Virus record (IMG/VR): IMGVR_UViG_2875713109_000005
DNA from: a virus
Lineage: Duplodnaviria > Heunggongvirae > Uroviricota > Caudoviricetes
Direction: 5' to 3' (one strand)
Length of the DNA: 40,475 nucleotides
Numbering within the stretch: the first letter of the stretch is position 1; each line of letters begins with the position of its first letter. A model generated the notes under the pieces. That model ran no database searches and had not been told where the DNA came from. It saw only the letters and a list, made by a program, of their open reading frames with translations. Made by a program: the position numbers and the translations under genes. This document shows, piece after piece, positions 33,565 through 38,491 of the stretch.

Positions 33565-34359
33565 TCACTTTTCCGATGCAACATGGCGGGAAGAATCAGT
33601 AATCTGTCGTACAATATCCCTGTGCTTGTTCAACTCACGCAGCGCGGCGCAGACACACTCCCACTTCTGGACATGATTTTTCGCCCGACGCAGTTCGCGG
33701 TTTGCCATATGCAGTGATGGTAAAACCAGGTCATCCGCTCGCGTTTCAGTAAACGATGGCAGCGACTGCACAATGTCCGCCACAGTTTCTGTTTTAATAT
33801 CTTCCTGTGTTGCAGCCTCCTGTACTGGTAACGCAACACCTGCGGTCTGAGGAAAGGCCTTACCATCAGTTTCCGCTACCGATGCTGCTTTCGGCTCTGC
33901 TGGTAAATTATCGCCCGGTATGCAGTAACGAAATTTACCGCCCTGATTTACGCGAATCAGACGACCTTTGCTGATTGCCATTGCCAGCGTTGAAGCCACT
34001 TTGCGTGATGTGGTACCAAACAATGTAGCCAGCTCATCAGCCGTTTGTGGTCCGCGTTGTTCAATCGTCGCGGTTAAATCGCACTCTGAGATTTTCGCTA
34101 CTGTTGCTGTGGTGGTTTCTTCCAGCAGTTCTACCTGCGCTGGCTGTTCCTGCTGAACGTTGTTATCAGCCACACGCCAGGTGTACGCGCTTTTATCAAC
34201 ACAACCAGCCTTTTTCAGTTCCCATAGTTCGTTCAGCACTTCTTCACGACTGATATCAAGTCGAGCAGCAAGTTCTATGGATGTGGCTTTTCCCATTGCT
34301 TTCAGTGCGTCAAAAACAGTCTCCATTAAATTTTTCTCCCGGTAAAAATTACTTCGCAA
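33565..34359 (-). CDS. Hypothetical phage replication-region protein with N-terminal winged-helix-like segment (264 aa; alternative start at 34326)
   Basis: N-terminus [43 protein letters not shown] looks like a wHTH. Overlaps the stop of the DnaC-like gene. Confidence 0.5.
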
Positions 34360-34828
34360 TTCCTAGCTGGACGACATTCGGACGCCAGCTCTCCCAGTTA
34401 AAATTCACCCATCGCCCGCCGTTCATGGTCATGCGATCCATAATCCGCTCGCCGAGCAATGTTTTCATGGCCTCATAGTTCAGGTTTGTCAGCATCCCCA
34501 CGCTGCGCATCGAAGCTGTCCGGCGATCAACAATCTGGTGCAGTACCACCTGCTCGTTTTTCGTCTCGCGCTGAATGCCAATTTCATCAAGAACCAGCAG
34601 ATCCACTTCGCACAGTTCCCGCAAAAATTTTTCGCCTGACTGCCCGTCGTCATAGCTGGCGTGCAGGGCACTCATAACATCAGCCACGGTAACCACAATC
34701 ACTGTCTGACCGTCTTTCAGCAGGCGATTCCCGATAGCTGCCGCTAAGTGGTTCTTCCCGGTAGCCATTGCTGATTGCCCACCGACAACAGCACAAGCTT
34801 GCTTGAATGAATAGTTCTCTTTTTTCAT
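34349..34828 (-). CDS. DnaC/IstB-like helicase-loader ATPase, N-terminally short (159 aa)
   Basis: Walker A-like [18 protein letters not shown], Walker B LLVLDEIG, and HQIVDRR...[23 protein letters not shown] resembling the DnaC C-terminal half. The expected N-terminal domain of about 70 aa is absent. Confidence 0.6.
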
Positions 34829-34857
34829 CGAATGAACTCCAAAAACACACAGAAATA

Positions 34858-34925
34858 TTAGGCGACGCCTAACGCAATTGTCAATAGGCTGTGCCTAATG
34901 CGGTAAGGGTAGGGATTGCCTAATG
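34858..34925. promoter_or_regulatory. Operator-like region with TTAGGC/GCCTAA half-site repeats, left of the repressor gene
   Basis: 15-bp perfect palindrome TTAGGCGACGCCTAA (34858-34872), ATTGTCAATAGGCTGTGCCTAATG (34877-34900) and TTGCCTAATG (34916-34925), in the 123-bp divergent intergenic region. Confidence 0.5.
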
Positions 34926-34951
34926 TAATGCGCATAGGAGAATATTAAGCA

Positions 34952-35428
34952 ATGCTTAGTGGTAAAGACTTAGGCCGAGCGATAGAGCAGGCCATTAACA
35001 AAAAAATCGCATCGGGATCCGTCAAATCAAAGGCGGAGGTCGCACGCCACTTCAAAGTCCAACCACCATCAATTTATGACTGGATTAAGAAAGGCTCTAT
35101 AAGTAAAGATAAACTTCCAGAATTATGGCGTTTCTTTTCTGATGTTGTTGGTCCAGAGCATTGGGGGCTTAACGAATACCCCATACCAACCCCCACCAAT
35201 TCAGATACAAAAAGTGAACTTTTAGATATAAACAACCTTTATCAAGCAGCCTCTGATGAAATAAGAGCGATTGTAGCTTTCCTGTTATCTGGAAATGCTA
35301 CAGAACCAGATTGGGTTGACCACGATGTTCGCGCCTACATAGCAGCGATGGAAATGAAAGTGGGTAAGTATCTGAAAGCTCTAGAATCTGAACGGAAAAG
35401 CCAGAACATCACAAAAACTGGAACTTAA
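34952..35428 (+). CDS. racR: Prophage repressor, RacR-like (HTH)
   Basis: 158 aa; N-terminal HTH (GRAIEQAINKKIASGSVKSKAEVARHFKVQPPSIYDWIKKG). Same length and position (divergent from the replication genes) as Rac RacR as recalled. Confidence 0.7.
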   Translation: MLSGKDLGRAIEQAINKKIASGSVKSKAEVARHFKVQPPSIYDWIKKGSISKDKLPELWRFFSDVVGPEHWGLNEYPIPTPTNSDTKSELLDINNLYQAASDEIRAIVAFLLSGNATEPDWVDHDVRAYIAAMEMKVGKYLKALESERKSQNITKTGT

Positions 35429-35505
35429 ACTTATATGGTCTGACGGAAAACTCCTGGATTCCGTTATTTAACCCCCCCATCACTTTCTGCTGTCGCCATC
35501 ACCTA

Positions 35506-35560
35506 TTAGGTTACGCTCAAAACATTAGGCATAGCCTATTGACAATCAATTAGGCATTAC
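35506..35560. promoter_or_regulatory. Second operator-like region, inverted copy of the left site
   Basis: CATTAGGCATAGCCTATTGACAAT (35523-35546) is the reverse complement of 34877-34900 at 23 of 24 positions. Additional ATTAGG half-sites at 35506-35515 and 35550-35556. Confidence 0.5.
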
Positions 35561-35736
35561 CTATAGTTCCAGCATACCACCCACCCCGCCCCACAGAACG
35601 CCGGGCAATACTTCGAGTTACCAGGCAGTGGTAAGGGGTTAAGTAGCCAGCCCGAGGCGTATGAACATGACGGCGGGATTCAAATTTTGCAGTGCAGCAG
35701 TTAGTTCCGCCACCCGGCGTTAAGGGGAGAGATAAG

Positions 35737-35871
35737 ATGGTGCATTACGAAGTAGTTCAGTATTTGATGGATTGTTGCGGTATCACTTACAACCAGGCTG
35801 TGCAGGCTTTACGCAGCAACGCCTGGGATCTCTGGCAGGCAGAAGTCGCTATACGTAGCAACAAGATGTGA
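35737..35871 (+). CDS. ydaG: Small Rac-type protein (44 aa), YdaG-like
   Basis: AAGGGGAG RBS before the ATG. Encodes MVHYEVVQYLMDCCGITYNQAVQALRSNAWDLWQAEVAIRSNKM. Size and position match Rac ydaG as recalled. Below the ORF-track length cutoff. Confidence 0.5.
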   Translation: MVHYEVVQYLMDCCGITYNQAVQALRSNAWDLWQAEVAIRSNKM

Positions 35872-35881
35872 GATTCGCAAA

Positions 35882-36037
35882 ATGCAAAAAATCGACCTCG
35901 GCAACAACGAATCCCTGGTGTGCGGCGTGTTCCCCAACCAGGATGGAACGTTCACTGCCATGACGTATACCAAAAGCAAAACATTTAAAACCGAAACTGG
36001 TGCGCGCCGATGGTTGGAGAAGCACACAGTAAGCTAA
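35882..36037 (+). CDS. ydaF: Small Rac-type protein (51 aa), YdaF-like
   Basis: Encodes MQKIDLGNNESLVCGVFPNQDGTFTAMTYTKSKTFKTETGARRWLEKHTVS. Convergent with sieB. Size and position match Rac ydaF as recalled. Confidence 0.5.
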   Translation: MQKIDLGNNESLVCGVFPNQDGTFTAMTYTKSKTFKTETGARRWLEKHTVS

Positions 36038-36522
36038 CGATTAAAACGTCTACTCCTGCTGTTCCAGAATAACTTCATAAAATGGGAGTATTTTTCGGTG
36101 ACGAGATAATAAGAACAGTTTGCGCTATCACTCTGATGTTGAATGATGCCCTTCCGTTCTAATTTTTTCATAACCGGGTTACGGCAAGGAGAAGTGATAA
36201 TAAGATTTCCTGTTTTAAGGAAATCTTTAAATACAGCGATTTCTTTCTCAGATAAACGAAGCAATACTCGTTGCTCTGGTAGTAATGAATAATGCTTTTG
36301 AATATGTGCTCGCAATCTTGAGAAGGAAATGGCGACCACGAAAGAAAAGGCAAAAACGATAATCTGAAAGAGCCAAGGTATTTCAGTATAAGCATTGAAT
36401 GCGACAGTAAACTCTTTCGGTATCAGCCAGAGAGTGAGACCAAAAATGATAATCGTATACATAAGTCTTTCGAGTGGCTCGTTAGCAAAAAGTTTCAACA
36501 ATGGAGTAAATACATCCAACAT
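36034..36522 (-). CDS. sieB: Superinfection exclusion protein SieB
   Basis: 162 aa from the internal Met (MLDVFTPLLKLFANEPLERLMYTIIIFGLTLWLIPKEF...), membrane protein. Size and position match Rac SieB as recalled. Confidence 0.75.
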   Translation of the reverse strand: MLDVFTPLLKLFANEPLERLMYTIIIFGLTLWLIPKEFTVAFNAYTEIPWLFQIIVFAFSFVVAISFSRLRAHIQKHYSLLPEQRVLLRLSEKEIAVFKDFLKTGNLIITSPCRNPVMKKLERKGIIQHQSDSANCSYYLVTEKYSHFMKLFWNSRSRRFNR

Positions 36523-36962
36523 ATCAATAACTCTCAACTGTAAGGGTATTGAAATGTTAACACAAGCTCTCGCTGTAGGGGTATAGCCGAGACCACCGAA
36601 GCCCGGAGGTGGTGAAATAAAACCGGGCACAACACGAAGGCGCATTTCCGATATCCATAAAGAGTCGGTCTTGTCTGTTAAATTTAAATGGTGGGAGTGC
36701 GCCTCCGGTTGTAAATAACGACATTGCTGTGTGTAGTCCTGGCGGCATCAGTTTTTTCTTGAAGTTCGGCTGATGTCCGCCCTTTTTTAAGTGAATTTTG
36801 TGATGCGGTGAATGCGGCTAAGCGCACGTGGCACAGTTAAAAGTCATGTTAGTCCTTATTGGTTTGGGTGGGAAAGCCGACTGTAATTGTTAACTGGTTG
36901 CAGTCACCTGGAGGCACCAGGCACCGCATCAACAAAGTTCATTTGTAAAAATGGAGATAATT

Positions 36963-37805: not shown

Positions 37806-38249
37806 ATGAGCACAAAACCACTCTTCCTGTTACGGAAAGCGAAAAAATCATCCGGTGAACCTGACGTCGTCCTGTGGGCAAGCAACGATTTTGAATCGAC
37901 CTGTGCCACTCTGGACTACCTGATCGTTAAGTCAGGTAAAAAACTGAGCAGCTATTTTAAAGCTGTTGCCACGAATTTTCCTGTCGTTAATGACCTGCCC
38001 GCTGAAGGTGAGATCGATTTTACCTGGAGTGAACGCTATCAACTCAGCAAAGACTCCATGACATGGGAACTAAAACCGGGAGCAGCACCAGACAACGCTC
38101 ACTATCAAGGCAATACCAACGTCAACGGCGAAGACATGACTGAGATTGAGGAGAATATGCTACTCCCAATTTCTGGCCAGGAACTGCCCATTCGTTGGCT
38201 TGCTCAACACGGCAGCGAAAAGACGGAGGTACTCAGTTTGAAGTTATGA
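37806..38249 (+). pseudogene. recE: recE 5' remnant (exonuclease VIII N-terminal about 140 codons), deletion-truncated
   Basis: [46 protein letters not shown]... matches the RecE N-terminus as recalled, but the ORF stops after 147 codons. The full-length gene encodes 866 aa. Confidence 0.7.
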
Positions 38250-38491
38250 CGCGCAAACAGATTGAGCTGGTGCGCAGCCTGAGTAAAGCTGGTAATAACG
38301 GGCCGTGGGTAACTCACTGGGAAGAAATGGCAAAGAAAACGGCTATTCGTCGCCTGTTCAAATATCTGCCCGTATCAATTGAGATCCAGCGTGCAGTATC
38401 AATGGATGAAAAGGAACCACTGACAATCGATCCTGCAGATTCCTCTGTATTAACCGGGGAATACAGTGTAATCGATAATTCAGAGGAATAA
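38195..38491 (+). pseudogene. recT: recT 3' remnant (C-terminal about 85 codons)
   Basis: ...[88 protein letters not shown] matches the RecT C-terminus as recalled, in a different frame from the recE remnant. Junction near 38220-38230. Confidence 0.7.

Follow-up and report, generated by a model that had tools for sequence, protein, structure and literature searches.

In bacteriophage lambda, the gene for the CI repressor lies between two clusters of operators, OL and OR, each of which overlaps an early promoter that points outward. Adjacent operators in lambda are spaced 23–24 bp apart. Rac, which is among the most-studied of the cryptic prophages, carries a repressor of its own, RacR, one of the few transcription factors that are essential in Escherichia coli K-12. 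Current models of its action, and current experiments, concern only the intergenic region between racR and ydaS; the published binding work was done with fragments of 123–271 bp, all of them from this side of the gene. Krishnamurthi et al. in 2017 described three variant GCCTAA/TTAGGC repeats in the 123-bp racR–ydaS region, and binding of RacR there was seen by thermal shift, by ChIP-qPCR and by EMSA, in which three complexes formed (PMC5700373). A 2022 NAR paper mapped a single start site for ydaS and confirmed its –35 (TTGACA) and –10 (TAATAT) hexamers by mutagenesis, mapped three promoters for racR, footprinted RacR on a 271-bp fragment, and gave the half-site as ATTAGGC and the operators as (T/A)TAGGC-n3-GCCTA(T/A), one of which has the racR ATG in its spacer (PMC9638921). 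Elsewhere, four inverted repeats were counted in this intergenic region, and RacR, which behaves as an octamer in size-exclusion chromatography, was interpreted to act as four dimers on these four repeats (PMC11014345). The products of ydaS and ydaT bind here, too: YdaS is reported to compete with RacR for the operators and to repress its own synthesis, and YdaT footprints ~100 bp of the intergenic region, where its box is ATGATT-n6-AATCAA (PMC11014345, PMC11879457).

RacR also affects genes on the other side of racR. Expression of ydaG, ydaF, kilR, ydaE and racC rises ~40- to >70-fold when RacR is lowered by C protein, and CRISPRi of racR brings about the same induction of ydaG, kilR, ydaE, racC, recE, recT and neighboring Rac genes (PMC6765115; bioRxiv 10.64898/2026.09.06.749655). 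The derepression of ydaG–kilR could in principle be indirect—by way of YdaS/YdaT, for example, or of prophage excision. A 2023 paper calls the RacR regulon uncharacterized, and assigns no function to the ydaFG operon.

The DNA analyzed here, a stretch of 40,475 nucleotides that we refer to as the window, is an E. coli Rac prophage, 100% identical to Rac of E. coli PSS-07 and, from position 34762 rightward, 99.7% identical to Rac of K-12. Its racR gene (34952–35428, + strand) lies between the repeats that are the subject of this work and encodes a repressor of 158 aa. This protein scores 244.6 bits against the NCBIfam RacR equivalog (cutoff 200), and the 100%-identical record gives it the accession WP_000948459.1, which is that of the K-12 protein; the family is assigned through NCBIfam, the only Pfam match being a sub-threshold one to HTH_17. 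To the right of racR come ydaG (35737–35871, + strand) and ydaF (35882–36037, + strand), the first and second genes of a predicted PL operon, and then sieB (on the opposite strand), kilR, ydaE, racC, remnants of recE and recT, ralR, rcbA and xisR. Comparison with the flanks of racR in K-12, proposed in a preliminary description of this DNA, finds 34762–34960 to be the same except at 34902, and 35420–35745 to be the same throughout. The single difference in either flank—G at 34902 in place of A in K-12—lies outside the dyads described below. In the published PracR2 promoter it occupies the opening position of the –10 hexamer, which changes from AGTAAG to GGTAAG. The binding data in the literature are for the K-12 sequence, and thus for DNA that differs from the window at this one base.

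Two internal deletions distinguish the window's copy of Rac. One, of ~1.9 kb, has taken out ydaT and ydaU entirely, along with the greater part of ydaS and the 5′ portion of ydaV. With it have gone the genes that, being toxic, make racR essential in K-12, and also the PracR4 promoter and the YdaT box. What is left is an in-frame ydaS–ydaV fusion (34349–34828, – strand), now driven by the promoter PydaST in the window strain, in which residues 1–22 of YdaS are joined, near 34762, to residues 112–248 of YdaV, the last 137 codons. This fusion arrangement occurs in just 3 of 5,426 complete E. coli genomes. The second deletion is at the recE/recT junction (~37806–38491, corresponding to 6507–7192 of L002), where the 100%-identical record, as annotated, has a C-terminally incomplete recE abutting an N-terminally incomplete recT.

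Two near-identical repeats flank racR in opposite orientations. One, ATTGTCAATAGGCTGTGCCTAATG, occupies 34877–34900; the reverse complement of the other, at 35523–35546, is ATTGTCAATAGGCTATGCCTAATG, and the two match at 23 of 24 positions, exactly as the preliminary description had reported. No third copy with three or fewer mismatches is present in the 40,475-base window (0 are expected in shuffles). The sole mismatch (34891/35532) falls in the middle of the N3 spacer of a 15-bp dyad, TTAGGC-N3-GCCTAA. At 34858–34872 the dyad appears as TTAGGCGACGCCTAA, a 7+1+7 palindrome that had rightly been called perfect: the one unpaired base is the central one, for which no partner can exist. When up to two mismatches to TTAGGCNNNGCCTAA are allowed, there are five matches in the 40,475 bases for 1.24 expected, and all five flank racR, with starts at 34858, 34884, 34909, 35525 and 35550. 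When three mismatches are allowed, the window-wide total of 16 is at the level of chance (15.7 expected), and three of the additional matches are again in the racR flanks, at 34945, 34970 and 35506. The repeats had been said to lie among TTAGGC/GCCTAA half-sites, and so they do: seven of the nine exact hexamers in the whole window are inside 212 nt, where 0.011 would be expected, a clustering whose P of ~3e-18 is indicative only, the regions having been picked post hoc. The extended half-site, ATTAGGC, opens three of the five best dyads (34858, 35525 and 35550).

The 24-mer itself is made up of one dyad, which we call dyad A, the hexamer TTGACA, and two more bases. Its single inverted recurrence is explained by this composition, because dyad A is joined in each copy to the –35 hexamer of an outward promoter. 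The preliminary description had taken the 24-mer to be operator-like; it does contain a dyad, but since it includes a –35 it is not, as such, an operator.

A sigma-70 consensus scan of 34700–35900 returned only two promoter-like sites, which are mirror images of one another with dyads in identical placement. The left-hand site is PydaST (34855–34884, – strand), the analog of lambda PR. Its –35, TTGACA (34884→34879), and –10, TAATAT (34860→34855), are separated by an 18-nt spacer and match the consensus at 10 of 12 positions, and the prediction agrees with the promoter that was mapped by primer extension and mutagenized (PMC9638921, PMC11879457). Left dyad B, the published O1 (34858–34872, TTAGGCGACGCCTAA), has no mismatches, overlaps the –10 by 3 nt, and is the same in K-12; in DNase I experiments the ydaST promoter region is protected at the lowest RacR concentration (PMC9638921). 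Left dyad A (34884–34898, ATAGGCTGTGCCTAA), the core of the 24-mer at 34877–34900, has one mismatch and abuts the –35, with one base in common; it is inside the fragment on which RacR was footprinted (PMC9638921). A third dyad with two mismatches (34909–34923, GTAGGGATTGCCTAA) is in the racR promoter region and is kept in O157-type and E. ruysiae loci, also. The fourth, a weak one with three mismatches (34945–34959, TTAAGCAATGCTTAG), has the racR ATG in its N3 spacer and is the published operator O3 (PMC9638921); a dyad at –7 relative to the start codon is kept in all of the distant homolog loci. In all, the left cluster spans 34858–34959.

The right-hand site is a predicted PL-like promoter (35539–35567, + strand), with –35 TTGACA (35539–35544), a 17-nt spacer, and –10 TATAGT (35562–35567). 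It matches the consensus at 11 of 12 positions, and its predicted start, near 35574, points toward ydaG. Right dyad A (35525–35539, TTAGGCATAGCCTAT; one mismatch) is the core of the second 24-mer, 35523–35546; it abuts the –35, again with one base in common, and is kept downstream of RacR homologs. Right dyad B (35550–35564, TTAGGCATTACCTAT; two mismatches) overlaps the –10 by 3 nt and, to judge from its degenerate right half, ACCTAT, may bind weakly. Centered 19 bp from right dyad A is a weak auxiliary site (35506–35520, TTAGGTTACGCTCAA; three mismatches), which has two mismatches in E. ruysiae and is absent from distant loci; it is possibly a weak third left operator, in lambda terms, of the E. 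coli lineage only. The right cluster so defined spans 35506–35564. Within the promoter-proximal pairs the dyads are 26 bp apart, center to center, on the left and 25 bp on the right, and the centers of the two pairs are 666.5 bp (~667 bp) apart.

The right-hand cassette is not peculiar to this prophage. Downstream of the repressor in O157-type E. coli, E. ruysiae, Mixta, Morganella, Proteus, Achromobacter and Pigmentiphaga, the same elements occur in the same order—a dyad, TTGACA, a second dyad 25 bp further along, and a TAxxxT hexamer—amid unrelated flanks and with variable N3. The O157-type locus is ~87% identical in DNA sequence, and in the other genera RacR is 57–75% identical in protein sequence; only a Klebsiella locus (L011) has no downstream pair within 2.5 kb. 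When viral contigs were scanned with the pattern TTAGGCNNNGCCTATTGACA, 120 loci were returned, and 108 of these encode a RacR homolog (33–100% identity). An outward-pointing module is present downstream of the repressor in 107 of the 108 contigs with a homolog, and on both sides of it in 90. Each of the 12 loci in which no homolog was detected has the double dyad; three of them are truncated at the locus end, beside a match that is weak or partial. In the divergent groups, the downstream module is separated from the repressor by zero to four small genes. A 5.2-kb contig in a MAG binned as ‘Candidatus Nanosynbacter’ (L007, JARKOR010000130.1) encodes a RacR 100% identical to that of E. coli; almost certainly, it is an E. 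coli contig that was mis-binned.

The viral contigs were chosen because they contain a module, so independent evidence from them is limited to the presence of a RacR homolog, to dyad B and to the second module. Conservation of dyad A and the –35 is circular, these being the search pattern itself; their per-column information content was therefore dropped, and dyad B was used as the independent test instead. Dyad B is present at an offset of 24–26 in 49 of 50 non-redundant contexts and at control offsets in none of the 50, against a background rate of 0.0005 per position, and its 3′ end is TAATAT or a close variant, much as a –10 hexamer would be.

Many of the distant loci (PL modules, L018–L137) have a canonical intrinsic terminator, a GC-rich hairpin followed by a T-run, directly upstream of the downstream dyad A. 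In E. coli Rac, a terminator scan detects none on the + strand of 35429–35524, and so transcripts of racR could run on toward kilR unless stopped. This fits with the Rho-dependent termination that has been found inside racR (PMC4150792).

Where the cassette ends can be seen from phages of other immunity. Evi and Tritos have repressors and promoter/operator sequences that are unrelated to those of Rac, and their homology to Rac (~85–90%) begins at ~35574, the predicted start of transcription; many E. coli genomes, similarly, match Rac only from ~35570 on. This onset of homology indicates that the immunity-specific cassette ends at the right-hand promoter, as would be expected of a PL/OL, and that the operators are exchanged along with the repressor, Evi, Tritos and many E. 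coli sharing with Rac only what lies from ~35574 onward.

Beyond this boundary comes an untranslated leader of ~160 nt (35574–35730, + strand), which is 85–100% conserved in Evi, Tritos, other phages and many E. coli. It opens with a C-rich, G-poor tract, ACCACCCACCCCGCCCCACAG, and has within it a block, AAGTAGC-N-GCCCGAGGCG-N-ATGAA, that is found in Mixta and other distant loci, as well. The leader could be a site for Rho loading or for antitermination. An Rfam scan of 34300–36700 gave zero matches at E ≤1. Conserved RNA structure in the leader is not supported (z-score –1.64, with only six predicted consensus pairs and zero compensatory changes). A small ORF, for which E. coli has an ATG after GAGG, was rejected; that ATG is missing in Mixta.

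Taken together, we think it very probable that the repeats are RacR operators in a bipartite, lambda-like immunity region. Clusters of operator-type dyads are present on both sides of racR, at 34858–34959 and at 35506–35564; each overlaps an outward promoter, mapped in the literature on the left and predicted on the right; and the dyads are of the RacR type and adjoin a gene for RacR. The preliminary description had likened the arrangement to OL and OR on either side of a lambdoid repressor gene, and this likeness stands up well: the right-hand sites have the motif and the geometry of the left-hand ones, at an outward, near-consensus promoter, and the right pair is both kept across genera and situated directly upstream of the point at which homology to heteroimmune phages starts. 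The description had also predicted RacR-type sites at both of the divergent promoters. On the left such sites are already in print (PMC5700373, PMC9638921); on the right, at the pair 35525–35564, we infer both the binding of RacR and repression by it.

If this is correct, regulation would proceed as follows. Dimers of RacR recognize the 15-bp dyads, (T/A)TAGGC-N3-GCCTA(T/A). Two strong sigma-70 promoters lead outward from racR: PydaST, the PR analog, to the left, and the predicted PL analog to the right, the latter reading into ydaG–ydaF–kilR–racC–recET–xis–int. At each promoter, dyad A extends into the –35, and dyad B, 25–26 bp away, covers the spacer and reaches three bases into the –10; a pair of dyads, once filled, would block RNA polymerase sterically, and both early operons would be silenced. 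The two weaker left dyads, over the racR promoters and start codon, serve in the autoregulation of racR, as has been published. Neighboring dyads would presumably be occupied cooperatively, and cooperation in pairs is plausible since the 25–26-bp spacing resembles the 23–24 bp of lambda. Looping between the two pairs, brought about by an octamer of RacR, is possible on this analysis. In its full form—an octamer that bridges the PydaST pair and the ydaG-side pair, throws a loop of ~670 bp around racR, and so couples the repression of both operons with autoregulation—we offer the idea tentatively, and are inclined to doubt it. Such looping would be an alternative to the published view, in which the octamer occupies four dyads of a single intergenic region. 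Were the bridging real, the right-hand pair, as the silencer of kilR, would be the main reason that strains lacking ydaS and ydaT keep racR.

Might the right-hand copy be nothing but a strong, near-consensus promoter, no target for any repressor, downstream of which ydaG–kilR are silenced by Rho/NusG termination? The consensus hexamer TTGACA is, after all, part of the 24-mer; silencing of kil in Rac by Rho and NusG is documented (PMC4150792, PMC12482147); and the leader that follows the promoter is C-rich. A promoter consensus does not account, however, for two full dyads at fixed offsets, nor for their being kept across genera while N3 and the flanks vary, nor for their occurrence together with RacR homologs. 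Heteroimmune phages, moreover, have the leader but not the promoter/operator block, and one would expect an unrepressed promoter so near consensus to do harm when it lies upstream of kilR. We consider this account very unlikely. It is very improbable, too, that the primary ligand of the dyads is not RacR but the Cro-like YdaS, or else YdaT. Operators are common to CI and Cro in lambda, and in Rac the competition of YdaS with RacR, its autorepression, and the footprint of YdaT on the same region are all on record (PMC11014345, PMC11879457). But direct binding of RacR to the left dyads is on record as well, the YdaT box (ATGATT-n6-AATCAA) is a different sequence, and the sites are intact in the window even though ydaS has been cut to 22 codons there and ydaT deleted. 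A candidate YdaT box at the right site was rejected: a lone half-site, AATCAA, is present at 35544–35549, with no partner at the required spacing. If YdaS also uses the dyads where Rac is intact, this does not conflict with the explanation that we favor.

That the repeats belong to an unrelated, dispersed family, or are small terminator hairpins, we find scarcely credible. The terminator scan did pick up weak minus-strand hairpins with T-rich tails at two dyads; the stems are of 5–7 bp, though, the loops of 3 nt, and terminator-like sites are as numerous as shuffles lead one to expect, and the terminator reading was rejected. As for a repeat family, a worry raised in the preliminary description, the 40-kb window has no copies elsewhere, the module adjoins a RacR homolog in 108 of 120 independent contigs, and the motif is limited to the flanks of RacR-type repressor genes.

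How much of this is new? The motif, the left-hand sites and the analogy with lambda are known already. In the Rac literature that we searched, older papers such as Conter et al. 1996 aside, no promoter or operators are described between racR and ydaG, and ydaG, ydaF, kilR and sieB are nowhere mentioned in the 2022 NAR paper (PMC9638921). The right-hand promoter and its operators are thus the expected counterpart of the left-hand ones and apparently undescribed, a novelty that we regard as provisional. They extend the lambda paradigm in the way that one would expect, and introduce no new principle. A second promoter under the control of RacR would, if real, provide a direct mechanism for the silencing of kilR, recET, ralR and xis–int and for their induction on a drop in RacR, and it would bear on how the octamer is to be read.

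The RacR operators of K-12 are those of the window, with one base changed outside the dyads; motif and PydaST are the same, with the difference that ydaS–ydaT, which are regulated in K-12, have been deleted from the window strain. The resemblance to lambda is one of architecture: racR lies between two operator clusters positioned over outward early promoters; adjacent dyads are ~2.3–2.5 helical turns apart; the repressor, as reported, is octameric; the operon on the PL side has kil, recombination and xis–int functions; and in RacR-family loci extra genes can separate PL from the repressor, a position held by rexAB in lambda. In detail the two differ. The dyads of Rac are 15 bp and unrelated in sequence to the 17-bp sites of lambda; there are four on the right-operator side, one of them over the start codon, and two strong ones on the left-operator side, whereas lambda has three and three; and the clusters are 667 bp apart in Rac but ~2.3 kb apart in lambda. 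The C-terminal domain of RacR is reported to be unrelated to that of CI (PMC11014345), and RacR reportedly does not respond to SOS (PMC10448788).

Two other prophages come close. CP-933P, with PaaR2, YdaS and YdaT, has an immunity region of the ydaS–ydaT type and an octameric repressor (mBio 2021, PMC8630535). Its PL933P promoter, with OL1–3, was shown to be repressed by reporter assays (PMC8630535), whereas its counterpart in Rac is predicted. The repressor and operators of CP-933P differ from those of Rac, the operators being 18-bp palindromes with the half-site GTTTAGTAA, and a toxin–antitoxin pair sits between its repressor and PL (PMC8630535). Qin, with DicA, DicC and dicBp, differs in repressor family and operator sequence, and phages with immunity of the Qin type, such as Tritos, have only the transcribed leader in common with Rac. 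In layout, nevertheless, Qin is like Rac: it is a cryptic prophage of E. coli, its repressor is of the non-SOS kind, it has PR-like and PL-like promoters, and it has sets of operators in both the dicA–dicC and the dicA–dicBp intergenic regions (J Bacteriol 2023, PMC10448788).
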